Below are positions 3,982-58,734 of a DNA stretch of 64,000 nt, in pieces; within the stretch, counting starts at the first letter, position 1, and each line of letters starts with the position of its first letter. The position numbers and the translations under genes were made by a program. Origin of the DNA: Candidatus Nomurabacteria bacterium (GTDB taxonomy: Bacteria; Patescibacteriota; Minisyncoccia; Phycocordibacterales; UBA9973); contig JACKGL010000004.1 of NCBI GenBank assembly GCA_020631955.1, positions 25,811 to 89,810 of the forward strand, in the 5' to 3' direction. The notes under the pieces are model-generated. The model ran no database searches. It worked only from the letters and a program-made list of their open reading frames with translations, and was not told where the DNA came from.

Positions 3982-4044
3982 CTCAGTTGGTAGAGCAACG
4001 GTTTTGTAAACCGTGGGTCGTGGGTTCAAGTCCCTCTTCCGGCT
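3972..4044 (+). tRNA. tRNA-Thr (anticodon UGU)
   Basis: Cloverleaf read directly: acceptor GCCGGAA/TTCCGGC, D-stem GCTC/GAGC, anticodon stem ACGGT/ACCGT with loop TTTGTAA (anticodon TGT), T-arm GTGGG-TTCAAGT-CCCTC (one U-U mismatch). Confidence 0.8.
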
Positions 4045-4045
4045 C
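4027..4045 (+). repeat. direct repeat copy 1 (3' end of tRNA-Thr, caagtccctcttccggctc)
   Basis: Exact 19-nt match with 4212..4230. Confidence 0.7.
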
Positions 4046-4211
4046 ATAAAACAAATGAACTCAGTGCGGAGCACTGGGTGATTTTGTTTTACAGTCGGAG
4101 TGGGGCTTGAACCGAGCTGGCGCAAAGCCCGCGTAGCGGAGCCTGCGAGTGGGGGTCGATGGAGTGAGATATTTTACGAGTAATACGAAGTAAAATATCC
4201 ACGAGAGTGAC

Positions 4212-4230
4212 CAAGTCCCTCTTCCGGCTC
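4212..4230 (+). repeat. direct repeat copy 2 of tRNA-Thr 3' end (followed by CA, giving ...TCCA)
   Basis: Exact 19-nt match with 4027..4045; candidate att remnant. Confidence 0.7.
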
Positions 4231-4315
4231 CATTTGTTCTTTTAAATAGGTTTATATCTCTACGGTTGCTTGTAAGCAGCAGTCCGTTTAAAGAAGCGTA
4301 ACAGCTTCGGAGATG

Positions 4316-7736: not shown

Positions 7737-7766
7737 AAAAACCCGGCTTAGCCGGGTTTTTGTTTT
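7737..7766. terminator. bidirectional rho-independent terminator
   Basis: aaaacccggcttagccgggttttt between convergent dsbA-like gene and rpoD. Confidence 0.6.
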
Positions 7767-9054
7767 AGTCAAAATAATTTCTTAGTCTCTTTATTTTTTC
7801 ATTATGTCTTAGTTTCTCATGAACCTTAGCCTCTATCTGACGAATTCTCTCACGAGTCACCCCGAACTCTTGTCCTACCTCTTCTAGAGTATGTTGCACA
7901 CCATTGGTCAGACCATATCTCATTTCCAATATTTTCTTTTCTTTCGGGTTGAGTTCATCTAATACTTCCCTTATCTGATCTTGAAGTATTCTACGAGCCA
8001 CTTCTTGGTCTGGGGAAAGTATTTTATCATCTGGAATGAATTCACCTCTTGTGGATTTTTCTTCTGAATCGTTACCGATAGGTTTTTCTAGAGAAACTGT
8101 CTCTTGGTTGATCTGTTCTATGGTGTATATCTTATCTACTTCTACACCCATCTCTGTAGCTATTTCTTCAGGTAGTGGGTCGCGGCCCAAGTCTTGTTGT
8201 AAACGACGAAGTACTTGTTTGTACTTAGATATTGTCTCTACCATGTGCACAGGTATACGAATAGTACGTGACTGATCAGCAAGAGATCTGGTTATAGACT
8301 GTCTTATCCACCATGTAGCATATGTAGAGAATTTGAATCCTTTTGTCCAATCAAACTTTTCTACTGCTTTGAAAAGACCAATATTTCCTTCTTGTATAAG
8401 ATCTAGAAGTGTAAGGTCGCTCGATCTTCCAACATACTTTTTAGCTATAGATACCACAAGACGAAGGTTGGCTCTAGCCAAAAGATTTTTAGCTTCTTCA
8501 TCCCCCGCCGCTACTCTTTTTGATAGATCTCTTTCTTCTTGTGCAGAAAGTAGGGGATACTTACCTATTTCTTTTAGATACATTTGTATAGAGTCATAAG
8601 AAGGTAGATCACGGAGAAGATTTTTCTGATCTTGTTTTATTTCTGTTTCTAGATTTAAAAGATTACCACCTTCAAGTACATCTATATGTAGAAGACCAAA
8701 ATCATCATAAAGTTCTTCAAGAAAAACAATATCGCTTTCTACGTCTGGAAAAGCTTTTAGGATTTCGTCATATGTGACATACCCTCTTTTCTTCCCTTTT
8801 TCTATAAGCTCACTTTTTATCTTATCTTTGTCAGCTTTTGATATCTTGGCACGTCTGGTTGTATTTTTTACAGCTTTTTTAGTAGATTTCTTTGCTGTTT
8901 TTTTAACAACTTTTTTATTTGTTGTTTTTTTTGCCGATTTTTTAGCTGTTTTTTTCACAGCCTTTTTTGCTACTTTTTTAGCAGTTTTCTTAGCCACTTT
9001 CTTTGTGGTTTTTTTAGCCTTCGATATTGTTTTTTTGGTTTTTTTTGCTGGCAT
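7765..9054 (-). CDS. rpoD: RNA polymerase sigma-70 factor RpoD with lysine/alanine-rich N-terminal repeats
   Basis: Regions 2-4 clearly present ([16 protein letters not shown]..., [25 protein letters not shown]..., [20 protein letters not shown]). N-terminus is [10 protein letters not shown] repeats instead of acidic region 1.1. Confidence 0.9.
8790..9050 (-). repeat. coding tandem repeat (AKK/KKT units) within rpoD 5' end
   Basis: Imperfect tandem tttttt/gctgtt repeats at nucleotide level encoding KKxAKK units. Confidence 0.6.
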
Positions 9055-14397: not shown

Positions 14398-17300
14398 TTA
14401 TTCTTCTATAGTTTCTTCTACAACAGTAGCTTCGCTTTCGACCTCATCACTATCTACAACTTTCCCATCATTTATAAGTTGAACATCAAGAGCCAAACCT
14501 CTTAGGTAGTTGAGCATCACAGAAAATGATGCTGGTGTGTTGGTTTGGGTAATGTTGTCACCTTTTATAATAGAATCAAATGTTGCTACTCTACCTACTA
14601 TGTCGTCAGACTTTATAGTAAGCATTTCTCTAAGAGCATATGCTGCTCCATATCCTTCAAGTGCCCAGACTTCCATCTCTCCGAATCTTTGTCCTCCACC
14701 TTGAGCTTTACCTCCTAAAGGTTGTTGTGTAATCAAAGAGTATGGACCGATGCTTCTCATGTGTATCTTGTCTTCCACCATGTGGTGAAGCTTGAGTATG
14801 TACATGATACCTACAGCTACATCTCTTCTAAATTTCTCTCCTGTTCTACCGTCATATAAAGTAAACAATCCGTCTTCTCTATAACCAGCTTCTTTCAATT
14901 CATCTTTTATTTCTTCTACAGTAGCTCCTGCAAACGGAGGCACTACGGCTTGATACCCCAAAGTACCTGCAGCAAGACCTAAGTGAAGCTCTAGTATCTG
15001 TCCTAGGTTCATACGAGAAGGAACACCTAGTGGAGTAAGTATCACATCCACAGGAGTACCGTCTGCCATGTATGGCATGTCTTCTTCTGGCAATATAGTA
15101 GAAATAACACCTTTGTTTCCGTGACGCCCTGCTAGCTTGTCTCCTACAGATATATTTCTTACTTGAGCTACCTCTACGATAACTTTCTTTATTATTCCAG
15201 ATTCTAGTTGATGTCCTTGTTCTCTAGAGAAAACTTTCACACCTATGACACGCCCTTTCTTACCATGAGGCATTCTCATAGAAGAATCTTTTACGTCTCT
15301 AGCTTTTTCAGCAAAGATAGATCTTAGAAGTCTTTCTTCTGGAGTAAGTTCTGTTTCTCCTTTTGGTGTTATCTTTCCTACCAAGATGTCGTTTTCTCTT
15401 ACTTCAGCTCCTACTCTTATGATACCGTCTTCATCTAGGTTTTTTAGTTTTATTTCACCTACGTTTGGTATGTCTCTAGTAGTCACTTCAGCTCCTAGTT
15501 TTGTATCTCTAACAAGACAGATAAATTCGTCTACATATATAGATGTAAACTTATTATTTTTTACTAGTCTTTCAGACAAGATGATAGCGTCTTCATAGTT
15601 GTTACCACTCCATGTCATAAATGCCACTGTACAGTTTTGACCAAGTGATATTTGTCCGTCTACTGAGCTAGATGCATCAGCAAGAAGATCTCCTTTCTTT
15701 ACTTTTTGTCCCACGCTTACTACTGGTCTTTGATGTAGTACGCTAAAGTTGTTTGTACGTGAGTAGTTGATAAGAGGATAACCATGTTCTTTACCTTTAC
15801 TGTCTTTTACTATTACTTGTCTAGCATCTGATTTTGTTACTGTTCCATCTTCTTTCGCTAGTATTAGTCTTCCTGAGAACTTTGCAGCTTGCGCTTCTAT
15901 ACCTGTAGACACATAAGGTGATTCAGGAAGTACACAAGGTACCGCTTGTTTTTGCATGTTAGATCCCATGAGTGCTCTGTTGGCGTCGTTGTGTTCTAGG
16001 AAAGGAATAAGTGCTGTACCTATAGATATAGGTTGGTGAGGTGCTACGTCGATAAAATCTAGTTCTTCTGGAGATACTAGTCCTGGTTTTGTTTTTACTC
16101 TTGCTTCTACTGAGTCAGTAAGGAATTTACCGCTTTTATCATATTTTGCACTAGCGTTGGCAATAGTATATTTCTCTTCTTCAAGAGCGTTTAGATATAC
16201 CACTTCATTTGTGATCTTTCCGTTTTTTACTCTCACGTATGGAGATTCGATCACACCGAATTCGTTGATCTTTGCATATATAGAAAGGTGAAGGATAAGT
16301 CCGATGTTTGGACCTTCTGGAGTGTGGATAGGACATACTCTTCCGTAGTGGCTAGTGTGAACGTCACGCACTTCAAGTCCTGCTCTTTCACGAGTAAGAC
16401 CTCCTGTACCCAAAGCAGATAGAGTACGAAGGTGCTCTATTTCTGATATTAGGTTTTCTTGGTTCATGAACTGTGAAAGTTGGTTTGTAGAATAAAACTC
16501 TTTTATCCTAGCTTGCAATGGACGTTGGTTTATTATTTGTACTGGGTTTGCAGAAGAAGCGTCTATAGTAGACATACGGTCTTGGATGTTTCTCTTTATT
16601 TGAGTCATACCAACACGCATCTTTTGTTGAAGCATTTCTCCTACATACTTTACTCTTCTAGATCCTAGGTGATCTATATCGTCTCCTTTTGCTCCTGGAG
16701 TAGTGGATAGTTTTATTATTTGTGAGAAGATTACATTTAGGTCTGTCTTTGTAACAGATCTCTCTTCTAGATCTGCTTCTTTTACTGAAAGGTCAAATCT
16801 CTTGTTGAATGTGTGTCTACCTACTGTAGATAGATCATATCTTTCCCTGCTAAAGATACTATCTATATATTCTTTTGCGTTTTCTGCTGTAGCTAGATCG
16901 CCGTCTCTTAGTCTCTTATATACTTCTACATAAGCTTCCTGTACTGTCTTTGCTGTGTCTTTTTCTATCATTTCCTTCATTACACGTGTTTCGTCTTCAG
17001 TTTTACACATGCCAAGCATGTCTTTTTCTGTAAGACCGAAAACACGAAGAAGTGAGATAAAAGAAAACTTTCTCTTCTTATCTACTCTTACATACAAAAG
17101 TCCGTCTGTTTCCATTTCTACTTCTATCCAGACTCCTCTTGCTGGTACTATCTTTGCACCAAAATGTCTTTTTCCTTTTAGCTCTTTATCAGTAAAGAAG
17201 ATACCGTAACTTCTAGCGAGTTGAGGTACTAGCACTCTTTCTACTCCGTTTATGATGAAAGTACCATGATTGGTCATCACTGGGAAATCAGCCAAGAATA

Positions 17301-17628
17301 TTTCTTGTTCTTTCTTAGTACCGTTTGCTCTGTTTAGTAAAGATACAGTAGCTTTTAGTGTAGACTCATAGTTGAGTTTGTTTATTTTTGCGTATTCTTC
17401 AGAACACTTTGGTTCTGATACTACAAATGATTTGAATTCCAAATCATATTTTTTCTCCGAATAATCTTTGATCGGAGAGAACTCTTCGAAAAGTTCTTGT
17501 AGACCATGCTCTATAAGCCAGTTGAATGACTTGAGCTGATCTTCTATAAGATCTGGGAATTCGACAAATGGTTCCCTAAATTTCGAAAAAGTTTTTTTAG
17601 GTAGATTCTTTGATGGTATTAAATTCAT
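14398..17628 (-). CDS. rpoB: DNA-directed RNA polymerase beta subunit
   Basis: 1076 aa with conserved RpoB blocks (GEMEVWALEGYGAAY etc.). Confidence 0.95.
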   Translation of the reverse strand: MNLIPSKNLPKKTFSKFREPFVEFPDLIEDQLKSFNWLIEHGLQELFEEFSPIKDYSEKKYDLEFKSFVVSEPKCSEEYAKINKLNYESTLKATVSLLNRANGTKKEQEIFLADFPVMTNHGTFIINGVERVLVPQLARSYGIFFTDKELKGKRHFGAKIVPARGVWIEVEMETDGLLYVRVDKKRKFSFISLLRVFGLTEKDMLGMCKTEDETRVMKEMIEKDTAKTVQEAYVEVYKRLRDGDLATAENAKEYIDSIFSRERYDLSTVGRHTFNKRFDLSVKEADLEERSVTKTDLNVIFSQIIKLSTTPGAKGDDIDHLGSRRVKYVGEMLQQKMRVGMTQIKRNIQDRMSTIDASSANPVQIINQRPLQARIKEFYSTNQLSQFMNQENLISEIEHLRTLSALGTGGLTRERAGLEVRDVHTSHYGRVCPIHTPEGPNIGLILHLSIYAKINEFGVIESPYVRVKNGKITNEVVYLNALEEEKYTIANASAKYDKSGKFLTDSVEARVKTKPGLVSPEELDFIDVAPHQPISIGTALIPFLEHNDANRALMGSNMQKQAVPCVLPESPYVSTGIEAQAAKFSGRLILAKEDGTVTKSDARQVIVKDSKGKEHGYPLINYSRTNNFSVLHQRPVVSVGQKVKKGDLLADASSSVDGQISLGQNCTVAFMTWSGNNYEDAIILSERLVKNNKFTSIYVDEFICLVRDTKLGAEVTTRDIPNVGEIKLKNLDEDGIIRVGAEVRENDILVGKITPKGETELTPEERLLRSIFAEKARDVKDSSMRMPHGKKGRVIGVKVFSREQGHQLESGIIKKVIVEVAQVRNISVGDKLAGRHGNKGVISTILPEEDMPYMADGTPVDVILTPLGVPSRMNLGQILELHLGLAAGTLGYQAVVPPFAGATVEEIKDELKEAGYREDGLFTLYDGRTGEKFRRDVAVGIMYILKLHHMVEDKIHMRSIGPYSLITQQPLGGKAQGGGQRFGEMEVWALEGYGAAYALREMLTIKSDDIVGRVATFDSIIKGDNITQTNTPASFSVMLNYLRGLALDVQLINDGKVVDSDEVESEATVVEETIEE

Positions 17629-17957
17629 ACTTTTTTCTTATTAATAATAGACACCAAAATACCGTACTAAAACACAAAAATTCCGAACGTGTCGGATCTT
17701 GATAGTTTTAGTTTGTTTTGTTGCGGTATCGCAAGGTGCAGGGGTGAGATTAACCTTGTAATAGTAGACCGGTCCACAACTCAATCATCTTCAATCTGGG
17801 TTTCAGACTACACGAAATACCTTATTTTGTCAACACTTTTTACACTTTCCCTTTTTCTATATTTATATATCCCTTCACTTATTTCTTCCTCGGCTTTATT
17901 AAGTCCATTATCTGACCTACCACAGATCCAATAATAGCTGAAGATATAATGGGTATT

Positions 17958-18046
17958 GGCCAAAACATCCGAATGAACTCAGTATTGTTCGCAGTGTAAT
18001 GGAGCGGAATTGCGGACAACGTCGGGATTAAGAGAAGTTTTTGCGA
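17958..18046. repeat. dispersed intergenic repeat, copy A (core ggagcggaattgcggacaacgtcgggattaagagaagttt)
   Basis: Nearly identical to 18737..18823; shorter match at 19606..19660 and partial match at 4053..4070. Confidence 0.55.
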
Positions 18047-18197
18047 AGCAAAAATTTGAGATAGTGCCTAGCTGAGGCATTTACCGTTTAAGCCCTGTTA
18101 AGTAACCTGACGACCGAAGGGAGGAAATCGTAGCGGAGTGCGACTGAAAGGAGCGAGTTCAAAAAATATTTTTCCATAAATTTCATTTTGATAAATT

Positions 18198-18542
18198 TTA
18201 TTGTAGCTCAACTCCTTGATTTTCTATATTCCATAACAATTGATTATTACGAATCTCACCTCTATCTTTAACATGTATCGGGTATTTTATTTGAGATGAT
18301 AACATTTGTTGGATTCTATTTTTCATATCAGATATTTGACCTCTTGTCTTACCTGTAATTTCCAAATATACATCCAAATCTGAGTTTTCTGAATAACCAC
18401 CTGTTATCCTAGAACCATATAAAATACATTTTTTAATTGCGGGAAAACATCCCAAAGTTTTCTTTAGTGAGTCAATCTCACTTTCGCTAACTCCAACAAA
18501 TGTTTCACCATTTTTTTTTGTGATATCTGGTGTTTTTTCCAT
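18198..18542 (-). CDS. minimal nucleotidyltransferase (Pol-beta superfamily, MNT-like)
   Basis: LYGSRITGGYSENSDLDVYLEI = GS-x(9-13)-DxD nucleotidyltransferase signature. Start set at internal MEKTPD because the upstream part of the ORF overlaps the GC-rich repeat. Confidence 0.65.
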   Translation of the reverse strand: MEKTPDITKKNGETFVGVSESEIDSLKKTLGCFPAIKKCILYGSRITGGYSENSDLDVYLEITGKTRGQISDMKNRIQQMLSSQIKYPIHVKDRGEIRNNQLLWNIENQGVELQ

Positions 18543-18736
18543 AGGTAAGTTTAGAAAATAAAATTTATCAAAATTCCTTATTAAAAGAAAAATATTTTTT
18601 GAATTGCGTCTAATACTGAGCTCATGCGAAATCCTCGTAGCGTAGCGGAGAGGAGAGGATTTGGGTGGGAGCTGCATAGCGAGAGTTGTACGTTGTTTCG
18701 CTTCGCTATTTTATCATTATACTCTATTCTAGCGTC

Positions 18737-18823
18737 AGCCCAAATATTTGGATGAGCTCAGCATTGTTCGCAATGTAGTGGAGCGGAATTGCGGACAATG
18801 TCGGGATTAAGAGAAGTTTTGCC
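18737..18823. repeat. dispersed intergenic repeat, copy B
   Basis: ~90% identical to copy A over ~85 bp. Confidence 0.55.
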
Positions 18824-18938
18824 GACTTCCTTATTTCTATTATAGAGGAGGCGAAATTTAGGTGAAAGAAAAAGTGCTACCTTTGAAAAATATTAACGCA
18901 CTTTTTCTTGAACCTCATACACGCTGTTAGGCGATGTA

Positions 18939-19472
18939 TTATTCAAAATTTTTAATAAAAGTTATTTTTGTCCCTTGATTAAAATCAGAGTTTTCAACTT
19001 CATTAAGCTCATCTTGTCCTTTTACTTTGGTATATTTTTTCCCATTAGTTTCAATCATAAATTCATCAGCAAATTCTTTTGTTTGCGACAAACCATAACC
19101 TGGTGTGCCATATAAAATATCGTCGCTAGGATTGCCAGTCCAGTTTTTATAACTCGTAATAATAACGGTTATTTTACCTTCTTCAAAAATAACTTTTATT
19201 TCTCCACCTCTACCATGTTCTAAAGCATTTTTACCCAACTCAAAAATATAGTAGTCAAGGTTGTTGAATTTTTTATCGTTTGGGTCAATATTATTTTCCG
19301 CACATATTTGTTTCCACCACCTGTTCATCATACCAACTAATTTTTGAGTATCATATGTTCTTTCTGCCTGTTCAGCATCGGGGTGGCTTGACGATAAAAA
19401 ATTTACACTATACTCACGTGTAGGTTGCTCATTTGATTCTGATGTTGGGTAAAAATGCTTTTCGTTTTCCAT
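18939..19472 (-). CDS. GHKL/HATPase_c-like ATP-binding protein (anti-sigma-factor kinase-like)
   Basis: N-box ELGKNALEHG and G2-box GTPGYGLS; small size like RsbW/SpoIIAB. Confidence 0.4.
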   Translation of the reverse strand: MENEKHFYPTSESNEQPTREYSVNFLSSSHPDAEQAERTYDTQKLVGMMNRWWKQICAENNIDPNDKKFNNLDYYIFELGKNALEHGRGGEIKVIFEEGKITVIITSYKNWTGNPSDDILYGTPGYGLSQTKEFADEFMIETNGKKYTKVKGQDELNEVENSDFNQGTKITFIKNFE

Positions 19473-19494
19473 AAAAATTTTGAATAATATTTCG

Positions 19495-19612
19495 CCTAAT
19501 GTGCACGCTTATACAAAGTCTATCACAAAACGAAGTTTTTGGGAGAGATTTTGTATAAGCGTTGTTGTGTGTAGCTCCGCGGAGCACTACAACGCTGTGA
19601 GCGTGCACATTG
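19495..19612. repeat. long nested palindrome (gtgcacgc...gcgtgcac; cttatacaaa...tttgtataag; gctccgcggagc)
   Basis: Three nested inverted-repeat pairs read directly; the spurious ORFs on both strands here are mirror-like. Confidence 0.5.
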
Positions 19613-19660
19613 TGTGCAATGGAGCGGAGCGGAATTGCGGACAACGTTTCGGGCTAATCC
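19606..19660. repeat. dispersed intergenic repeat, copy C (core with agcgg duplication)
   Basis: caatggagcggagcggaattgcggacaacgtttcggg matches the core of copies A/B. Confidence 0.5.
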
Positions 19661-19819
19661 GAAGTTGCGGAGCGTAGCGGAGCAATTTGGAGAAATCCCG
19701 AGCCGAGCAATTTTCCTTTTATCCCTTGTTATACGAGGATGAGGAGCAATAGCGACGAAAGCGCAGCGTCCCCAAGGATTTTTGAAAGAAATCCGCAGCG
19801 TATGACGCAGGACGACACA

Positions 19820-20353
19820 CTAATATTTTTCTGAATTTTCCACGTGAATTAAAGCCATCGTGATTGCTTGCTTAGTATATTCTTTTCTGAGCAACCTACC
19901 ATGAGTAAGAATTCCTATAGCACCCTCTGCGGAGCCAACTTTTGGATTTTCTGTCAAACCAACCCTGTGAAATGCCTGATTAATATCTAATCCCTCATCA
20001 AAAACAAGTCTTGTAACGTCATAAGGGTATTCAAATGCAGAAGACAAGCCAACATGATAGTTTTGGCCGTCATAAATTGCACAAGCACACACATTCATAT
20101 AATCCGTTTTTGTATTTGGAACTTTCATTAATCCATCTTCAAGGCCAAAACTATAATCACAATTTTGGAAAGCATTTCTTGCTCTATTCATGGCTCCGCG
20201 AATAGTTTCATCAAGAGATTTAGGTTGCTCAGAAATTTCCGAGCTAACTTCTAAACCAGAAACCTCTGCGTTTGACAAAAAATTATAATCACGAATGGCT
20301 TCTCTAACAGCACCAACTTTTACATCATTTTGTGAACCAACTTTAATTCTCAT
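19820..20353 (-). CDS. YjjX-like non-canonical purine NTP phosphatase (ITPase/XTPase)
   Basis: C-terminal EGAIGILTHGRLLRKEYTKQAITMAL and N-terminal VGSQNDVKVGAV resemble the YjjX/Maf-Ham1 family. Confidence 0.65.
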   Translation of the reverse strand: MRIKVGSQNDVKVGAVREAIRDYNFLSNAEVSGLEVSSEISEQPKSLDETIRGAMNRARNAFQNCDYSFGLEDGLMKVPNTKTDYMNVCACAIYDGQNYHVGLSSAFEYPYDVTRLVFDEGLDINQAFHRVGLTENPKVGSAEGAIGILTHGRLLRKEYTKQAITMALIHVENSEKY

Positions 20354-20513
20354 AATATTATAGTGGAAAATTCATTTATTAATAAATGTGTCGCCCGAGT
20401 AATATGTCGTATAACTCGTTTTTATCGTAACTTTTCGACTAGTAAGCTACAAAAATTTATATGTTATCGTAACTTTTGATAAAATTCTTAGATAATATAC
20501 ATATTTATTTTAT

Positions 20514-20621
20514 CATGGATAAATTACTCAACCAAACAGAAAATTTACTTAAATTAAGAGGATGCAGTACTAAAACCAGAAAATCATATCTTCTCTATAT
20601 CAAGCAATACTACACTAAATC
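20514..20621 (+). pseudogene. remnant of tyrosine recombinase/integrase N-terminal (SAM-like) domain
   Basis: 35 codons MDKLLNQTENLLKLRGCSTKTRKSYLLYIKQYY fit the RGxS.nT..sY...i..F pattern of integrase core-binding domains; ORF ends abruptly. Confidence 0.3.
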
Positions 20622-21389
20622 ATAATCCCCCACCCTCGTTCTTTTTATAGAGTATGCTAGGCCAGTACAGCCGAGTCTCTTTCCTATTTTCTCTGCTAAT
20701 ACTCTCATATATGCCCCGCTACCGCAGGTCACTCGTACTTTTACTATCTGAAATACCTCACTACCGTGCGATGATGCGAACTCATTCCATCCAGCCACGA
20801 TATCTTTCTGTCTAAAATCCCCTTTTACTTTTTGTATTCTACTTATATTCAAAGAAGCTATCTCTTCTCCTGTCATACTTTTGTCACTTATCACTTCTAT
20901 ACTGTGTATCTTCACTGTGTGTTTCGGAGACTTAAACACTTTCCCGAGTCTTGCTAGTAGAAACACTGGTTTACCTTCTATGGTCTTAGAAGAATATTTC
21001 GGATAGTGTTCTTCAAATTCTCCTATGCATTTTTGTATAGCTACAGATAGATCTTCTTTGTTTAAAATAAAATCTTTTTTCACAGACTGTATTTCTCCCA
21101 AGACATCACCAGTGTCTGTAGACACACCGAAAAGCACTTCCACTTCGTACTCTTTATCAAAAGAAAGATACTTTTCTTTTTCGTGAACTTTCTCTCCAGT
21201 CAAAACCAAAAGTAGTCCACTGGCCATAGGATCTAGCCGGCCAGCATATGTGGCTTTTTGTCCTTTAGGTATCACACCTTCTTCTTTGGCTCTTTCTATA
21301 CACTCTAGAGGTGTCTCGCCTTCTTGTTTTTGTAGTAGATACAAGTCTTTTTCCATCTGCACTATTATACCAAAGTCCTGATTTGCCAA
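20610..21389 (-). CDS. truB: tRNA pseudouridine(55) synthase
   Basis: GRLDPMASGLLLVLTGE catalytic Asp motif; C-terminal PUA-like region. Confidence 0.75.
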   Translation of the reverse strand: MANQDFGIIVQMEKDLYLLQKQEGETPLECIERAKEEGVIPKGQKATYAGRLDPMASGLLLVLTGEKVHEKEKYLSFDKEYEVEVLFGVSTDTGDVLGEIQSVKKDFILNKEDLSVAIQKCIGEFEEHYPKYSSKTIEGKPVFLLARLGKVFKSPKHTVKIHSIEVISDKSMTGEEIASLNISRIQKVKGDFRQKDIVAGWNEFASSHGSEVFQIVKVRVTCGSGAYMRVLAEKIGKRLGCTGLAYSIKRTRVGDYDLV

Positions 21390-54412: not shown

Positions 54413-54454
54413 GAGACATGTGGGTCACTCCGATACTTAGTTCTCTTTGCGGTG
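54413..54454 (+). repeat. truncated boundary repeat R-c (interrupted by IR1-L after ...ttgcgg)
   Basis: catgtgggtcactccgatacttagttctctttgcgg aligns with the 5' part of R-b. Confidence 0.5.
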
Positions 54455-54640
54455 TTTATTGGACAAAGTTCGAAACTATTTCGAGCAAAATCCAAACGAT
54501 TAATGCGGACTCGGCAGGGCGAAACAATTTGTCTGAGGGAAAGGATTCGCCCTGCCTCGGCTGTTTTCCCGCCCGCAGGAGGGGTCTGGGGAGGAATGCG
54601 GGCGGGTTTCGGACTGGGGGTTTTCGGAAATTCGGCAGCT
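54450..54640 (+). repeat. IR1-L (~191 bp, GC-rich, contains two strong internal hairpins)
   Basis: Reverse complement matches 56824..57014 over every stretch I compared. Confidence 0.8.
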
Positions 54641-54649
54641 AATAAAAAT

Positions 54650-55129
54650 CTAACACAAAAAATACAATCCAAGTAGTGCGTAGATTATTCCGAACACCCA
54701 CGGAATAATCAACTCGATGTGTGAAAATGGATAGTATTTTTTGTTATCCTCGCCCTTACCCAAAACTTCCCATTCGTATTTATACAAAGCGAGTGGTAAA
54801 TATTCCTCGATTTTGTGAACAACAGCAAACTTCCCAGTGTTTAATTGTTTGTATGACCTAATGAGATACCAAAAAACTACACAAACAATTATTCCGACAA
54901 GGGCGAGGATTGATTTTACAAATGATAGATTTTCAAAAATCTTAATTTGAAAAGATAATCCTATGAGCGAGATAAGAGCAGTATTTATCGTAATAAAATA
55001 ATTATTTGCGTGTTGTCGTCTGTCGCTCGTTTTTTCTATGCTCTCAACATAAAGTTTATACTGCTCAAATAAGTGTTCTTTGTAGTCGTTTCCGTAATCT
55101 TTTTCATTTTTTGAAAATAAATCGCTCAT
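54650..55129 (-). CDS. small 3-TM membrane protein (candidate pore/effector component)
   Basis: 159 aa; soluble N-region then TM helices at ~53-68, 85-101, 139-158; last gene of operon, abuts IR1-L. Confidence 0.5.
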   Translation of the reverse strand: MSDLFSKNEKDYGNDYKEHLFEQYKLYVESIEKTSDRRQHANNYFITINTALISLIGLSFQIKIFENLSFVKSILALVGIIVCVVFWYLIRSYKQLNTGKFAVVHKIEEYLPLALYKYEWEVLGKGEDNKKYYPFSHIELIIPWVFGIIYALLGLYFLC

Positions 55130-55133
55130 AGGA

Positions 55134-55535
55134 TTATCTGTTGCCTTTCAAAAGCAAGCCAACATTTTCCCAAGTCCAGTTATACATTTTGTCAGTGGTT
55201 TTTACTCCGACTGGGAATGTGCAATTCTTATTACTTCTGCCTTTGATAAGAAAATATGGCTTGCCTAATTCTTGGGCAATTTTTATTTCTTCCGTAACTC
55301 CTTTTGCTGTGTGTGTCCATTCACCGCAAATCACGACGACCTGTTGAGCATTTATTATTTTCTGCTTAACTTTTGCTTTCCAATCACCCAACAACGCTTG
55401 TTTGACTGACAAGTCGCTTATTTCAAAAGGAGTGTCGTCGTGTTTTGCTTGTCCGACAAAAAGATGTTTCAAATCCTCGTCGTGATCAAAATCAAAACTG
55501 ACGAATACTTTTGTTTTTGTGCCGTAGTAAGTCAT
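55134..55535 (-). CDS. TIR-like (DUF1863/ThsB-like) domain protein
   Basis: KVFVSFDFDHDEDLKHLF (TIR beta-A/DUF1863 N-motif) and QQVVVICGEWTHTAKGVTEEIKIAQELGKPYFLI, which parallels ThsB VTCVLIGSQTFNRRWVRYEIMKSIEKGNKIIGI including the conserved Glu. Confidence 0.6.
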   Translation of the reverse strand: MTYYGTKTKVFVSFDFDHDEDLKHLFVGQAKHDDTPFEISDLSVKQALLGDWKAKVKQKIINAQQVVVICGEWTHTAKGVTEEIKIAQELGKPYFLIKGRSNKNCTFPVGVKTTDKMYNWTWENVGLLLKGNR

Positions 55536-55542
55536 AAATTAT

Positions 55543-56505
55543 TTACTCAAAGAATTTTCCAAGCCACCCACCAACAATACTTTGTGCAAATGCAATAACT
55601 TGCACAATCACAAAAATCAAAAATGGGTTTATATCTACAAACCAACTAACAACCCACGAAAGGAGAAGTGTCAGAAGTAAAGAGATAACAAATCCTTTTG
55701 TTTTTGAAATTTTTGGTTCAACTTCTTTTTTTGTTGGTTCATCTTTTTTATCGAGTAGTTTTTGGATATATTCAACTATTTCATCACTACTTTTAAATTC
55801 TATTTCAGAAATGCCAACATAACTTGAAGATTTTTCATCAAAAAGCGATTTATTAAAATCCTCAACATATTTCAGTTTCTTGCCATAAGCAGAATCATCA
55901 CGCTTCTCTTTCGGCAAATCCCAATATGCTTCACTCTCTTTCTTTTCTGATTCATTATCTGGATACCAAATACTCATTCCATAGTCGCCTGTATGGATTT
56001 CCAAGCCATGAGAGTCTTTTTTTACAAGTTCTTTTACTTTAGCAACGCCATCTTTAATTCTCTCTATGGATTGACGCAAAAACCTTCGATATTCATCTTT
56101 TGAGATTATTTCTGGATGTTTCGATAAAATGTATAAATTAACTTCATAATTTCCAAAAATTGGTACTTTAGACCAAACAACTTCTTTTTTTAGACTTTCA
56201 ATTCTGTCAGGCATGACAAAATCTTTTTTCTTGATTTCGGACTCCAAAACAACGCCGTCTTTTATTGAATGGTCTGTTCCACCTACAAAATCATGATAAA
56301 GCTCTATTGTCCGCATCTTTAAATCAATAGGATCATCTGAAATTTTATACTCAATTGTGGAATAGTTATGATGATAATCATCATTAATGCTCACATCTAT
56401 CTTAATTTTTTTCTCACTAGGGAAAAACTCAAAAGTGTTCGTTGTATGTTCATCGTTTATGACGATTGAATTTTCATCATCAAAAATTTCTACTTCTTTT
56501 TTCAT
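55543..56505 (-). CDS. hypothetical protein, ~270-aa soluble N-domain plus C-terminal 2-TM domain
   Basis: C-terminal hydrophobic helices GFVISLLLTLLLSWVVSWFV and FLIFVIVQVIAFAQSIVGGWL. Confidence 0.5.
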   Translation of the reverse strand: MKKEVEIFDDENSIVINDEHTTNTFEFFPSEKKIKIDVSINDDYHHNYSTIEYKISDDPIDLKMRTIELYHDFVGGTDHSIKDGVVLESEIKKKDFVMPDRIESLKKEVVWSKVPIFGNYEVNLYILSKHPEIISKDEYRRFLRQSIERIKDGVAKVKELVKKDSHGLEIHTGDYGMSIWYPDNESEKKESEAYWDLPKEKRDDSAYGKKLKYVEDFNKSLFDEKSSSYVGISEIEFKSSDEIVEYIQKLLDKKDEPTKKEVEPKISKTKGFVISLLLTLLLSWVVSWFVDINPFLIFVIVQVIAFAQSIVGGWLGKFFE

Positions 56506-56517
56506 AAGTTTAAAAAA

Positions 56518-56724
56518 TTATTTTAATAAATCCTCCATAGGAACGCCTAACGACTTGGCGATTTTTTGGATTGTTTGAACGCTTGGTTTCGTAACAACAC
56601 CACCCTCAATTTTTGTCAGGGTAGAGTATTTTATGTCCGCTTTTTTCGCCAAGTCATCTTGGGTCAATCCTTGTTTTGTTCGTATTCGTTTTATGTTTTC
56701 TGATATAGTTGCCATAGTATCCAA
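56518..56724 (-). CDS. XRE-family helix-turn-helix transcriptional regulator
   Basis: IKRIRTKQGLTQDDLAKKADIKYSTLTKIEGG is a Cro/C1-type HTH. Confidence 0.7.
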   Translation of the reverse strand: MDTMATISENIKRIRTKQGLTQDDLAKKADIKYSTLTKIEGGVVTKPSVQTIQKIAKSLGVPMEDLLK

Positions 56725-56823
56725 ATTTTGATAGTATTATCTTATGAGAAGATTCTTTCTTTGCTCACAAAACAATGATAGCAAAAATTATGGATTTATT
56801 CAATATGTATTTTCTGATTTTGT

Positions 56824-57014
56824 AGCTGCCGAATTTCCGAAAACCCCCAGTCCGAAACCCGCCCGCATTCCTCCCCAGACCCCTCCTGCGGGCGGGAAAA
56901 CAGCCGAGGCAGGGCGAATCCTTTCCCTCAGACAAATTGTTTCGCCCTGCCGAGTCCGCATTAATCGTTTGGATTTTGCTCGAAATAGTTTCGAACTTTG
57001 TCCAATAAACACCG
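56824..57014 (-). repeat. IR1-R (inverted copy of IR1-L)
   Basis: See IR1-L. Confidence 0.8.
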
Positions 57015-57131
57015 CCAAAATTCGGAATTCAAATTTCCGCCAAAAATATGGTCGGCGCGAAGCGCCGTCTGTTCTGCATTCCCCCCACAAAATCCTGATT
57101 CTGCAAGGATTCGCCACGCTCCGCGTGGCTC
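57012..57131 (+). repeat. IR2-L (~120 bp), immediately abutting IR1-R
   Basis: Reverse complement matches 58533..58652; contains palindrome cggaattcaaatttccg. Confidence 0.75.
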
Positions 57132-57155
57132 CTCGTTTGCCAATACAAAAACAAT

Positions 57156-58500
57156 ATGAATAATCACACCAGAAAGTTTTTTATCTATACTCGTAAATCT
57201 ACCGATACAGAAGATCGGCAAGTTAGAAGCATTTCGGACCAATTGGCCGAATTGAAATCTCTTGCACTCAAAGAGAATATTGAGGTTGTAGATATTTTTG
57301 TAGAAAAACAAACCGCCAAGATTCCGGGTCGGCCAGTATTTGACGAAATGCTTCTTCGTATCGAGCAAAATGAGGCAAATGGAATTTTAGCGTGGCATCC
57401 TGACAGATTAGCGAGAAATAGTGTTGATGGTGGAAAAATTATCTATTTGCTCGATACGGGGAAAATTGCCGAACTTAAGTTTCCAACTTTCTGGTGTGAT
57501 ACGACACCGCAAGGAAAATTCATGCTCTCAATCGCTTTTTCGCAATCCAAGTATTATGTGGACAATCTAAGCGAGAATATCAAGCGTGGTAAGCGGAACA
57601 AAGTGAAAGACGGAATATGGCCTCAAATGTCTCCACTCGGATATATGAACAAGGGTGGAAAAATTGTTGTTGATGAAAATATCGCACCTTTAATCAAGAA
57701 AACATTTGAGGCATATTCGTCTGGGTCTTTCACTTTGCGCCAACTTCGTGACAAATTTAACGAACTTGGATTGAAGCGAAAAAGCGGAAAGGAACTTGCG
57801 GTGTCGAATTATCAAAAACTTTTGAAAAATCCGATATACACTGGTTTGATGCTGTATAACGGCGAAATCCACGAGGGCAAGCATGAACCGATTATCACAA
57901 AGAAACTTTTTGATTCCGTTCAGGAAGTGATGATGAGGAAATCTAAACCTCACTCGAAAGGTCTAAAACCATTTTGTACAGAGGATTTTTCCGTTGTGGA
58001 GAATGTGGCTGTTTCATTACCACCGAAACACAAAAAGGACATAACTATTTGCGATGTACCAAACGGAAAAATCCTTGCTCACAAAAAATACACTCGTGAG
58101 GAAATCATCACTTCCGAAATTCAAAAAGAAATCAAAAAGTTTCTTTGCCAGACGATTGGGCTAAATGGATGTTGGCGGAAAACGAAAAAGATAAATTGGT
58201 GGAAACCCAATCGTCTACGCTTTTTAGGATAAGACAAAAGCCGATATTTCTCTCTTGATTCCAAGATTGAGAAGCTGATGAATGCTTACCTAGAAAACGC
58301 ACTTTCACTAGAGGAGTATCGAGATGCTAAAAGTGCGTTGGTCAATCAAAAACAGCTTCTCAAAGAGAAATTATCGGCTTTTGAGCAAAAAGGGAATAAT
58401 CGGTTCGAACTTACGGAAAAGTTTTTGAAATACAATATAGAATTGGCAAACGAGGGAATAAATGAAGAGAAACTTCATTTATTCAAAAAAGTCGGTTCGA
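57156..58500 (+). pseudogene. large serine recombinase (resolvase/integrase family), disrupted
   Basis: N-terminal catalytic domain (YTRKSTDTEDRQVRSISDQ..., GILAWHPDRLARN) and recombinase domain present; canonical zinc-ribbon FRCGECGCFITTETQKGHNYLRC is readable only in the -1 frame around 57977..58090; in-frame TAA at 58230 before the coiled-coil C-terminal part. Confidence 0.6.
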
Positions 58501-58532
58501 ACTTTATTATTGAAGCTCGAACCGTACTTTTT

Positions 58533-58652
58533 GAGCCACGCGGAGCGTGGCGAATCCTTGCAGAATCAGGATTTTGTGGGGGGAATGCAGAACAGACGGC
58601 GCTTCGCGCCGACCATATTTTTGGCGGAAATTTGAATTCCGAATTTTGGCGG
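58533..58652 (-). repeat. IR2-R (inverted copy of IR2-L), last bases overlap tRNA-Ser 3' end/CCA
   Basis: See IR2-L. Confidence 0.75.
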
Positions 58653-58734
58653 AGACGGAGGGATTCGAACCCTCGGTGGTGTGACCCACACACGCTTTCC
58701 AAGCGTGCGCACTAGACCGCTATGCGACGTCTCC
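58650..58734 (-). tRNA. tRNA-Ser (anticodon GGA), type II with long variable arm; CCA encoded at 58647..58649
   Basis: Reverse complement folds as GGAGACG acceptor, 3-bp D-stem, anticodon stem CACGC/GCGTG with loop TTGGAAA, 16-nt variable arm, T-arm GAGGG-TTCGAAT-CCCTC. Confidence 0.8.

Follow-up and report, generated by a model that had tools for sequence, protein, structure and literature searches.

Integrons, and especially the sedentary chromosomal ones, pair an integrase gene with a divergent row of co-oriented, mostly single-gene cassettes, and new cassettes are inserted beside the integrase. The cassette boundaries fall at GTT/AAC, and each unit has the geometry G|TT-ORF-R''-spacer-L''-loop-L'-spacer-R'. 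Their sites, about 60-215 nt long, conserve structure over sequence, similar attC interiors are found on unrelated ORFs, and the cassette functions are varied and mostly unknown. Within the integron integrase IntI, the I2 helix reads the extrahelical bases of the folded attC, and its acquisition is thought to have enabled cassette capture.(PMC7790495) The helix is described as necessary for capture and unique to IntI, and evolutionary intermediates are not known; the same paper discusses CTX-type integration of a folded strand by Xer as an origin scenario.(PMC7790495)

Three further systems invite comparison. CALIN are clusters of attC sites without an integron integrase. Xer/dif, together with the elements that exploit it, combines a short recombinase that lacks I2 with a target beside the recombinase's own gene, tandem inserts, and a folded hairpin as partner site. 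In the pdif modules of Acinetobacter plasmids, single genes are bracketed by inverted repeats of about 28 nt.

The locus considered here lies between truB and rpoB in a 64-kb window, by which we mean the whole stretch of DNA that was analyzed. We put the probability at roughly 80% that this region is the fossil gene-cassette array of an integron-like system whose integrase has been lost. The integron-like system to which it would belong is widespread in the candidate phyla radiation (CPR) and apparently undescribed; a search of the literature on integrons and attC sites in CPR bacteria, under various names, returned no description of such a system. It has in common with integrons the divergent layout, insertion beside the integrase, the boundary triplets, the site geometry and size range, and the varied cassette content, and as a whole it looks like an integron without I2. 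With five sites and undamaged cassette genes but only a stump of an integrase, the window array is comparable to a CALIN. Unlike those of a CALIN, its sites appear to belong to a CPR-specific family and not to the canonical attC model. The properties listed above for Xer/dif recur here, the folded partner site probably among them, but the CPR system lies away from the skew-defined terminus where this can be tested, carries single-gene cassettes, and has a recombinase that seems to have spread horizontally and that often decays. Single genes are bracketed by inverted repeats as in pdif modules; unlike those, however, the CPR repeats vary between cassettes and pair with each other rather than forming 11-6-11 double-stranded sites, and the conserved L stem and junction of the CPR sites have no counterpart in pdif. 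The outer arm of the CPR site, ATTTCNNNYAA, may resemble a XerC-type half-site.

The Array between truB and rpoB

The first-pass annotation of this region described long, GC-richer spacers without ORFs that separate three small accessory genes. The sizes that it gave were borne out: the spacers that set the three ORFs apart measure 569 nt (17629-18197), 396 nt (18543-18938), and 347 nt (19473-19819). The elevated GC content holds clearly for the third spacer only (0.470); the first and second (0.378 and 0.384) are close to the window mean of 0.369 and exceed only the neighboring cassette ORFs (0.30-0.36). Short reading frames (40-80 aa) are in fact present in the spacers, and the one that was tested (81 aa, 17689-17931) is without a Pfam match. 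Two of the gene assignments proved correct: the MNT-like gene encodes a Polbeta/MNT-type nucleotidyltransferase (PF18765, E 4e-8), and the YjjX-like gene encodes an NTPase_I-T/YjjX ITPase (PF01931, E 4e-41). The third, a proposed GHKL/HATPase-like protein, has a weak HATPase_c_2 match (E 0.0024) that misses Pfam's cut-off.

The inverted repeats that closely bracket every small gene had been overlooked. They are 13-31 nt long, begin with GTT and end with AAC, and the flanking inverted-repeat score is 13-28 for the cassette genes versus at most 10 for 21 housekeeping genes. Promoter-like sites are without enrichment (8 versus 12.5 expected), and terminator-like sites are at chance level (2 versus 2.3 in shuffles).

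Recombination sites were sought with a covariance model, R1, seeded with 15 sites from 11 other loci, none of them from the window. R1 produced exactly five matches in the 64 kb, all on the + strand and all inside the region under study, four of them at E-values of 4e-6 to 6e-9, which are approximate because the calibration was shortened. The curated seeds and covariance model replaced a generic finder for AAC…inverted repeat…GTT, which was dropped as nonspecific in AT-rich DNA after returning 560 candidates on both strands. Delimited by these sites, the array comprises three cassettes with one gene each (ITPase, GHKL-like, nucleotidyltransferase) and two or three that have no ORF, all on the - strand, in the order integrase stump, attI, c5 … c0.

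The integrase-proximal cassette, c5 (19646..20415), is delimited by its junctions and an inverted repeat and holds the ITPase gene (19820-20353) and an attC-like site. Its ends, GTTATACGA (19728-19736) and TCGTATAAC (20407-20415), are complementary, and the layout is that of the cassette at the intact locus L076. Site 5 (19634..19739, + strand; 51.2 bits, E 1.5e-8) is homologous to sites at L076 and L007 and runs in order through the R arm ATTGCGGACAAC / GTTTC, the L box, an inner hairpin with the loop GCGTAGCGGAG, ATTTGG, a second hairpin, a decayed L' box, and GTTATACGA; its L box mispairs. Next, c4 (19501..19645, junctions 19500 and 19645) is ORF-less and ends in the core repeat (…GGAGCGGAATTGCGGACAAC, then the junction). 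The stretch 19489-19621 (133 nt) folds with a dG of -35.7 kcal/mol (z -9.5), and within it lies site 4 (19489..19575, + strand; 53.1 bits, E 6e-9), a compact site of 87 nt with a 13-bp L stem, ACGCTTATACAAA/TTTGTATAAGCGT. The GHKL/HATPase-like gene (18939-19472) occupies c3 (18800..19500), and the 28-nt inverted repeat that flanks the gene is 93% complementary, starting with (G)TTAGGCGATGT and ending with ATTTCGCCTAA(T). Site 3 (18788..18937, + strand; 39.6 bits, E 4e-6) has mispairs in its L box and is a hybrid. In its L'' half it matches site 1 without a difference, and the remainder is about 90% identical to L045:2997-3125, where the neighboring ORF is unrelated.

Farther from the integrase, c2 (18615..18799, junctions 18614 and 18799) is again ORF-less and ends in the core repeat; the stretch 18603-18775 (173 nt) folds with a dG of -29.0 (z -5.2). 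Its site 2 (18603..18696, + strand) is weak and degenerate, at 17.9 bits, with an E-value of 0.15 when all 64 kb are searched and of 0.008 for the 3.4-kb region alone. The nucleotidyltransferase gene (18198-18542) lies in c1 (18021..18614) between inverted repeats at 18158-18202 and 18557-18603, with site 1 at 18009..18108 (+ strand; 53.0 bits, E 6e-9). The distal end of the array, c0 (17629..18020), is ORF-less, and its last 62 nt (17959-18020) belong to the first copy of an 88-nt repeat. Presumably c0 also contains the rpoB leader, and no R1 matches were found to the left of site 1. The L stems are mispaired in three of the five window sites.

The attI-like Junction and Intact Relatives

At the truB end of the array, an attI-like region (20416..20514, + strand) contains two direct-repeat boxes, TTATCGTAACTTTT (20422-20435 and 20464-20477). 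The junction reads …TATAAC followed by TCGTTTTTATCGTAAC, with the breakpoint at 20415/20416, and this stretch aligns with the integrase-upstream region of eight other loci as AAC|T(G/C)GTTnTTAT...TGTTATGCAAACTTTTG. The attI-like junction lies 99 nt before the ATG of the stump, a distance that is 69-145 nt across 67 loci. The window also contains GCGGACAAC / GTTTCGGGCTAATCCGAAGTTGCGGAGCGTAGCGGAGCAATTTGGAG, which matches the junction at L076. The stump itself (20515..20622, + strand), which the first-pass annotation had also overlooked, comprises 36 N-terminal codons of a tyrosine recombinase gene (Phage_int_SAM_4, E 6.5e-4) that run into the 3' end of truB, an integrase pseudogene that has 53% identity with residues 3-34 of the L001 integrase, which is intact. 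An independent assembly (L084) calls the same 36-aa gene, and no further pieces of an integrase gene were found within the 64-kb window.

The 19-mer at the core of the repeat, GGAGCGGAATTGCGGACAA, has exact matches at only 2 loci in 185,579 genomes, one of them probably by chance (Arenicellales), and an exact search did not find it in metagenome contigs. As the core is lineage-specific, relatives were sought through the integrase instead. Intact versions of the system were found at 80 metagenomic CPR loci, each with an integrase of about 270 aa, an attI junction, and cassette arrays that are co-oriented and divergent from the integrase in the locus maps. L001, a locus with an intact homologous architecture, also has the exact core 19-mer. 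An initial reading, in which two copies of a tRNA 3' end bounded L001 as an island, was withdrawn, the second copy being a complete tRNA-Val.

These loci were gathered via the integrase, and the association of sites with it was measured within integrase-centered windows, with their 287 kb of downstream flank as the control. By this measure the association is strict in both position and strand. R1 gave 81 matches in 82 loci, and among the 79 tabulated for 80 integrase-centered loci, 78 lie upstream on the integrase strand and 1 lies downstream. The motif GTTR...GATGT occurs upstream of the integrase 35 times on the + strand versus once on the - strand, and twice in the downstream control; the corresponding counts for ATTTC...YAAC are 60, 2, and 5. 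Junctions are spaced at a median of about 650 nt, and cassette content is varied, with 12 of 20 ORFs lacking a Pfam match.

Among solved structures, the closest sequence relative of the integrase is IntI, represented by VchIntIA (2A3V, E 1.7e-46), and the two share a C-terminal (R/K)SPL motif. TIGR02249 (integron integrase) is its best or second-best NCBIfam model, at 225-227 bits, which is under the cut-off of 265. Unlike IntI, the CPR enzyme is only about 270 aa long and is without the region of about 42 residues that holds the I2 helix. The match to VchIntIA falls into two stretches that skip its residues 211-241, and alignment with a genuine IntI1 leaves a 42-residue gap across RARAWW…WPWFWVFAQHTH. 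The IntI1 reference comprised the C-terminal 180 residues from pPaeBURNS1, three other IntI1 loci being truncated by other elements. On these alignments the absence of I2 may be regarded as settled.

Natural insertion and replacement breakpoints are seen in two pairs of near-identical loci. Between identical flanks, L072 and L076 differ by a 549-nt unit that comprises an attC-like site and a 115-aa ORF; its insertion point is …GGACAAC|TCGTTTC, some 150 nt upstream of the integrase ATG. Loci L041 and L042 show 100% identity that starts at …TAAC|TAGTT and extends over the integrase, and their sequences left of this breakpoint are unrelated. In addition, one group of near-identical attI sequences is preceded by at least five different R arms. 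Both the indel and the replacement have their breakpoints exactly at …AAC|T(G/C)GTT, in the attI beside the integrase, and from such comparisons of metagenomic contigs we infer that the cassettes are probably mobile.

The recombinase could instead be the housekeeping Xer of CPR bacteria, the attI a chromosomal dif beside its gene, and the cassettes IMEX-like elements that exploit Xer and pile up there. We consider this unlikely, although several properties of the system invite it. The integrase also scores on the XerA, XerC, and XerD models, and its L076 allele, at 238 bits, is above the archaeal XerA threshold of 220. An imperfect palindrome of 11-6-11 layout, ATTTCNNNYAA-CTGGTT-TTTATCCAAAC, can be recognized in the attI, and difSL, which adjoins xerS, is a precedent for a site beside the recombinase gene. 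Xer also integrates the folded single-stranded hairpin of CTX phage. The "Cand" recombinases of candidate phyla have been classed as Xer-related.(PMC8138268) Judged provisionally from contigs, however, the position of the sites argues against a dif, as the GC skew does not change sign across the integrase in L039, L049, L047, and L007, which places these sites away from the terminus, and the skew of the window has no inflection at 17-21 kb; a possible switch is seen in L067 and L076. Integrases that are 81-88% identical across contigs labeled as different CPR lineages fit horizontal spread better than vertical descent, and a housekeeping role fits poorly with copies that have decayed to stumps in the window, L096, L097, and L073. 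Finally, the inserts carry one gene each, together with a conserved folded site dedicated to it, and are not phage- or plasmid-like elements.

Fold of the attC-like Sites

Read antisense to the cassette genes, a site begins with the R arm ATTTCNNNYAAC and a spacer of 3-5 nt, continues through the 11-bp L stem, and ends with one nucleotide and GTT. The L stem closes a three-way junction made up of AAGTT, hairpin 1, ATTTGGG, and hairpin 2, and a typical site is about 110 nt long. The first-pass annotation had called for a covariance analysis of the repeated element, and a conserved secondary structure with covarying pairs was indeed found. In 78 distinct sites the L stem is 95.6% paired, with compensatory changes at 11 of 11 pairs, and paired cells overall amount to 89% versus 65% in shuffles and 29-42% with the partners slid; in alignment A3 the pairing is partly by construction, because the seed sites were required to contain a 7-nt inverted repeat, and alignment A4 was fitted to the model. 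The AAC/GTT triplet is invariant in A3, A4, and R1.

Several details set this fold apart from that of integron attC sites. The L stem is a perfect helix, with no extrahelical or bulged positions in any of the 78 distinct sites, the R pairing extends over 12-31 bp and is interrupted internally by a mismatch that is conserved, and the motifs AAGTT and ATTTGGG belong to a three-way junction that is likewise conserved in the interior. The hosts differ as well, being CPR bacteria. The spacer is asymmetric, with 3-5 nt on one side and 1 nt on the other. One attC interior occurs joined to unrelated ORFs and R arms, a pattern that fits host-specific attC families as in chromosomal integrons, although the mobile unit could also be differently defined.

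These details bear on the idea that the array is an ordinary integron remnant, a CALIN served in trans by a canonical, I2-bearing IntI, with the small recombinase incidental. In favor of such a remnant, the cassettes are of classical size and have the classical geometry, G|TT…ORF…AAC-L''-loop-L'-G|TT. We nevertheless find it very improbable, given that the sites are tied in position and strand to an I2-less integrase in dozens of loci, that the insertion breakpoints fall at the site beside that integrase, and that the L stems offer no extrahelical bases that an I2 helix could recognize.

Strong covariation indicates selection for intramolecular pairing, and the sites lie within the 3' UTR of every cassette transcript, so the repeats might be thought to act in cis as RNA structures of the small-gene transcripts (terminators, stabilizers, or processing sites) or to be small RNA genes. 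This account, too, has very little likelihood in our view. Homology breaks at the edge of the structure, and the strand antisense to the cassette mRNAs carries G·T over A·C mismatches by 2:1 (66 versus 32, a modest bias). Taken together, the breakpoints and the mismatch bias point to folded DNA rather than to a functional RNA. Terminator-like sites are not enriched, as noted, and a search of the window against Rfam 15 reached gathering scores for two tRNAs only; in the repeat region it gave sub-threshold matches to miRNA-type hairpin models only, and no family was matched.

Proposed Mechanism and Its Significance

In relatives, the intact system would work as follows. A tyrosine recombinase gene adjoins a conserved attI-like site, at which single-gene cassettes would enter successively, all of them transcribed away from the integrase. 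Each cassette closes with an attC-like site and would recombine within the AAC/GTT triplet. By analogy with integron integrases, the enzyme would bind the R and L stems of the folded single strand and exchange one strand with the double-stranded attI. Indirect hints that the bottom strand is the one that folds are the more stable fold of the strand antisense to the cassettes and its excess of G·T over A·C mismatches. The necessary asymmetry may come from the unequal spacer and the conserved R-stem mismatch rather than from extrahelical bases read by I2. With its integrase cut to 36 codons and three of its five L stems mispaired, the window array would be frozen, barring an integrase elsewhere in the genome that acts in trans.

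The chances seem to us about even that CPR bacteria possess a true cassette-capture platform in which an I2-less close relative of the integron integrases acts on folded sites without extrahelical bases, either as a "pre-I2" survivor or as a sister solution. Capture without I2 would, if true, contradict the I2 requirement and provide the intermediate that is so far lacking in the history of how integrons arose. Confirmation of recombination would make that origin directly testable and would reveal a second way of giving a folded recombination site polarity. It would further expose, in CPR bacteria, a major pathway for the exchange of genes; the "Cand" recombinases of these bacteria have been taken for Xer-like enzymes.(PMC8138268) Arrays of this kind may escape integron-finding software that is keyed to the IntI insertion.

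The Repeat Family and the Spread of the Cassettes

The dispersed repeat that first drew attention to the region is real, with copies in all three spacers and none elsewhere in the window. The stretches 17959-18046 and 18738-18825 are 86% identical over 88 nt, and the third copy has just 40 nt in common with them (19608-19647, 88%). The core 19-mer has three exact occurrences, all on the + strand, where shuffles lead one to expect 0. What had been described as a conserved element belongs to an array linked to an integrase, in which it covers the junctions between cassettes together with the recombination sites, which are attC-like. The recurring "gcgtagcggag" sub-motif is the loop of the inner hairpin in these sites. 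It recurs in the spacers, as stated, and also in the sites of unrelated genomes; with up to one mismatch, GCGTAGCGGAG occurs at 4131, 18128, 18640, and 19672 versus 0.12 expected. The copy at 4131, beside tRNA-Thr, had been grouped with the others but falls outside the site family and was rejected as a site, its best model score being 1.7 bits.

The first-pass annotation had left the choice between a MITE-like family, an att-like family marking a variable region, and structured RNAs, and of these the second is retained. MITE- or REP-like repeats accumulated by chance in an intergenic stretch might have inverted repeats and sit in noncoding sequence, as the 88-nt unit does, but they can be all but dismissed, as the copies are confined to this region of the window, have a core that is rare among genomes, share a single orientation without target-site duplications, and in relatives are bound to a particular integrase gene, on one side of it and on one strand.

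Read as an array of accessory genes that has become frozen, the odd noncoding stretch upstream of rpoB finds an explanation, and some of its genes can be followed beyond the window. Other CPR genomes have homologues of the GHKL-like gene in their cassette arrays, in one case as the first cassette, next to an integrase that is truncated. The ITPase protein of the window is present on 13 contigs, and the gene order is identical wherever the listed places show neighbors, so that the window array appears from these contigs to be fixed in the population.

A Probable Fossil Cassette Array between rpoB and truB

What the window itself holds between rpoB (14398-17628) and truB (20610-21389), at positions 17629-20622, is only the fossil of a cassette array. 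Three small genes lie there, all on the minus strand: a Polbeta/MNT nucleotidyltransferase (18198-18542), a HATPase-like (GHKL-like) protein with a weak match (18939-19472), and a YjjX-type ITPase (19820-20353). The first-pass annotation had described long spacers between these genes, and they measure 569, 396, and 347 nt; its description of them as GC-richer holds clearly for the third only (0.47 vs 0.369 for the genome) and not for the others. The core that it reported as repeated is indeed a 19-mer (GGAGCGGAATTGCGGACAA) present three times, always on the plus strand, versus none expected, and its recurrent sub-motif GCGTAGCGGAG occurs four times in the window versus 0.12 expected. Its three-copy element is better described as two 88-nt copies (17959-18046 and 18738-18825) that are 86% identical and a third shared over 40 nt only. 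Overlooked were an inverted repeat of its own that closely brackets each small gene, such as the 28-nt, 93% complementary repeat around the GHKL-like gene (18927-18954/19472-19499), and a 36-codon ORF on the plus strand (20515-20622) that encodes the N-terminal part of a tyrosine recombinase (Phage_int_SAM_4, E 6.5e-4). The remainder of this recombinase gene is absent from the 64-kb window. A terminator-like hairpin with a T run on the minus strand at 17682-17696, ∼55 nt upstream of the rpoB start codon, could be an rpoB leader/attenuator or the end of array transcription.

Architecture of Related Arrays

The exact core is also found in a Saccharibacteria MAG (L001), between two small genes beside an intact 272-aa recombinase whose N-terminus matches the window stump (KTCKAYLLYIKEY vs KTRKSYLLYIKQY), and a 28-nt inverted repeat (GTTAGCCGACAT…/…GGCTAAC) surrounds one of the two genes. 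An architecture survey of 80 metagenomic loci revealed runs of small co-oriented ORFs upstream of and divergent from the integrase, with spacers of roughly 50-360 nt. Inverted repeats of 13-31 nt bracket many of these ORFs; their outer ends show conserved sequence (GTTRNNNGATGT… at one end and …ATTTCNNNYAAC at the other), their two arms are separated by a fixed internal mismatch, and their scores are 13-28 for small ORFs versus at most 10 for 21 housekeeping genes of the window. Within 6 kb upstream of the integrase, these end motifs are almost confined to the integrase (plus) strand: GTTR...GATGT appears 35 times on that strand versus once on the minus strand and ATTTC...YAAC 60 times versus twice; 287 kb of downstream sequence contains two and five occurrences, respectively. 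The sequence after …YAAC falls into two classes, resembling either an insertion site beside the integrase (attI-like) or a cassette recombination site (attC-like; attC as defined in PMC2095811). The attI-like class has the conserved sequence AAC|T(G/C)GTTnTTATCCAAAC…TGTTATGCAAACTTTTG, and in 67 loci its junction precedes the integrase ATG by 69-145 nt. The attC-like class begins with a 3-5-nt spacer, an L'' box of ∼11 nt, AAGTT, and hairpin 1, whose loop is often GCGTAGCG, and continues with ATTTGGG, hairpin 2, a complementary L' box, one nucleotide, and GTTR….

A covariance model of attC-like sites (Model R1) was based on an alignment (A3) of 15 sites from 11 loci, none from the window. The L stem is fully paired in A3, and 10 of its 11 pairs show compensatory changes, although this pairing arises partly by construction because seeds were required to contain a 7-nt inverted repeat. 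Across 82 loci the model yielded 81 matches, and 78 of the 79 tabulated for integrase loci are on the integrase strand and upstream of the integrase. The L stem is 95.6% paired in 78 distinct sites (slid controls, 29-42%), with covariation in every one of its 11 pairs. Sites have a median length of 111 nt, and junctions are spaced at a median of ∼650 nt.

No Pfam match was obtained for 12 of 20 cassette ORFs from other arrays; the others are a nucleotidyltransferase, two cytidine deaminases, a CPT/zeta-like kinase, a DpnI-like nuclease, a CN hydrolase, a SWEET/PQ-loop protein, an Asp/Glu racemase, and an FtsH_ext-like protein. The GHKL-like protein of the window has only 36 homologues, and every source-named one comes from bacteria of the candidate phyla radiation (CPR), including an identical copy with the NCBI name Candidatus Nomurabacteria bacterium. 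One homologue is the first cassette of a Doudnabacteria array, adjoining a truncated integrase and followed by a Model R1 match on the predicted strand and then by NUDIX and Fic cassettes, and another (L095) lies within an array of at least 12 genes with four Model R1 matches. The Doudnabacteria array (L096 2139-5251 and L097 1420-4420) has integrase fragments of 70 and 64 aa and two model matches; integrase decay seems common among arrays. A second attI-like junction with an integrase N-terminal fragment in another locus (L073 2685-3037), ∼1.9 kb upstream of the main integrase, suggests tandem or nested platforms. In two further loci (L057 7129-7863 and L058 694-840), a single 147-nt site interior follows three R arms (AGCTAAC, GCCTAAC, and ATTTAAC). 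Sites are therefore homogeneous within one array, like the VCR repeats of Vibrio.

Sites and Units in the Window

Model R1 found five matches in the window, all on the plus strand and inside the array: site 4 (19489-19575; 53.1 bits, E 6e-9), site 1 (18009-18108; 53.0 bits, E 6e-9), site 5 (19634-19739; 51.2 bits, E 1.5e-8), site 3 (18788-18937; 39.6 bits, E 4e-6), and site 2 (18603-18696; 17.9 bits, E 0.15), all E-values being rough. Junctions (…AA[C/T]|) fall at 18020, 18614, 18799, 19500, 19645, and 20415. Read outward from the integrase stump, an attI-like stretch (20416-20514) with two direct repeats of TTATCGTAACTTTT is followed by c5 (19646-20415), which carries the ITPase and has complementary ends of its own (GTTATACGA/TCGTATAAC), c4 (19501-19645; no ORF), c3 (18800-19500; GHKL-like gene), c2 (18615-18799; no ORF), c1 (18021-18614; nucleotidyltransferase), and c0 (17629-18020), a terminal segment reaching rpoB. 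In the 88-nt element, the terminus of an ORF-less unit (…ATTGTTCGCAATGTAGTGGAGCGGAATTGCGGACAAC|) runs into the spacer, L'' box, and AAGTT of the site that follows, and the 'gcgtagcggag' motif is the hairpin 1 loop of an attC-like site. Site 3 is a hybrid in which the L'' half is the same as that of site 1 and the remainder matches, at ∼90% identity, a site in L045 that accompanies an unrelated ORF. Its L stem is consequently unpaired, and mispairs exist in sites 1 and 5 too. These mispaired sites and the truncated integrase mark the window array as decaying and frozen.

The ITPase protein was found on 13 contigs and the GHKL-like protein on 11, from several samples, and gene order matches the window in every listed place showing neighbors. 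On one short contig from another sample (L088 1-520), the ITPase cassette and attI-like stretch adjoin a different gene, GAPDH, rather than the integrase stump and truB, and homology to the window ends within the second attI repeat box.

Cassette Insertion and the Integrase

Natural events were captured by pairs of loci. L072 and L076, whose flanks are 100% identical, are distinguished by a unit of 549 nt that comprises one attC-like site and a 115-aa ORF and is inserted at …ATGTCGGACAAC|TCGTTTCTATACG adjoining the integrase. In the cassette-gene sense the unit reads G|TTATATTC-ORF-GAATATAAC-AC-L''(GCATTAACCGA)-loop-L'(TCGGTTAATGC)-GGGAC-G|TTGTCC, the geometry of an integron cassette with crossover within GTT/AAC. 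L041 and L042 share identical sequence from …TAAC|TAGTT through the integrase and are unrelated left of the breakpoint, and elsewhere at least five different R arms precede near-identical attI regions. From these three observations we infer that cassettes have been both gained and replaced at the attI-like site, which, judged by sequence comparison, would make cassettes of CPR arrays mobile.

Homologues of the recombinase number in the thousands; the best 120 clusters are 81-88% identical, ∼270 aa long, and labeled with many CPR lineages. Among solved structures, VchIntIA, the integron integrase of Vibrio (2A3V, E 1.7e-46), is the closest; the match to it is split in two and omits its residues 211-241. 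The integron integrase model TIGR02249 is the best or second-best NCBIfam model, at 225-227 bits, under its cut-off of 265 and with archaeal XerA comparable. Aligned with genuine IntI1 from plasmid pPaeBURNS1, the CPR enzymes lack 42 IntI1 residues (RARAWW…WPWFWVFAQHTH); the conserved KG-K-KDR and HSLRHSFATHLLE…LGH…TTQIYT stretches align with those of IntI1, and a C-terminal (R/K)SPL motif is common to both. I2, the additional helix specific to IntI integrases, is described in the literature as required for capturing cassettes, as reading the extrahelical bases of folded attC sites, and as unreported in other proteins, with no intermediates (PMC7790495). The L stem of CPR sites, in contrast to integron attC sites, has no extrahelical bases, which fits an enzyme without I2.

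Sites of this architecture are strictly linked to the integrase in position and strand, and breakpoints fall at AAC|. In the proposed mechanism, the integrase would bind a folded single strand at its R stem and 11-bp L stem and then exchange one strand with attI. In the free cassette, R'' would pair with the cassette's own 5' end over 12-31 bp to form an R stem carrying a conserved T·T/G·T mismatch. In place of bulges read by I2, the unequal spacer and this R-stem mismatch would confer polarity. Folding is more stable for the strand antisense to the cassette genes, where G·T mismatches are twice as common as A·C mismatches; this tentatively suggests bottom-strand use.

A serious alternative is a housekeeping Xer recombinase with dif beside its gene and IMEX-like inserts. 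Such a system would be mechanistically close to the one proposed, and a published classification places these recombinases as Xer-related 'Cand' enzymes (PMC8138268). However, neither the window nor any of four loci with clear skew shows a GC-skew switch at the site, the enzyme seems to have spread horizontally and has decayed repeatedly, and the inserted units each pair a single gene with a dedicated site. A canonical IntI acting in trans is a poor fit, as are RNA elements and MITEs, the structured-RNA and MITE readings being two of those offered by the first-pass annotation alongside an att-like one. A search of non-subscription literature on integrons and attC sites in CPR bacteria found nothing relevant, and an earlier description is possible.

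Other Features of the Window

Near-perfect inverted repeats surround three genes at 54446-58734: 201 nt, 99% (54446-54646/56818-57018), and 120 nt, 100% (57012-57131/58533-58652). The genes encode an 8xMP membrane protein (54650-55129), a ThsB-like TIR protein (55134-55535), and a large serine recombinase (57156-58232), and tRNA-Ser(gga) (58647-58734) adjoins the block, which looks like an integrated element or defense islet. At 4027-4231, a 19-nt direct repeat of the tRNA-Thr 3' end (caagtccctcttccggctc at 4027 and 4213) lies on either side of a GC-rich, 167-nt insert that contains ATGAACTCAGT and GCGTAGCGGAG and has no match to the attC-like model; the repeat pair resembles a remnant att duplication. 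The product of the sigma-70 gene rpoD (7765-9054) has an N-terminal extension that is repetitive and rich in Lys and Ala; DNA repeats with a 12-nt period (8864-9025) code for it.
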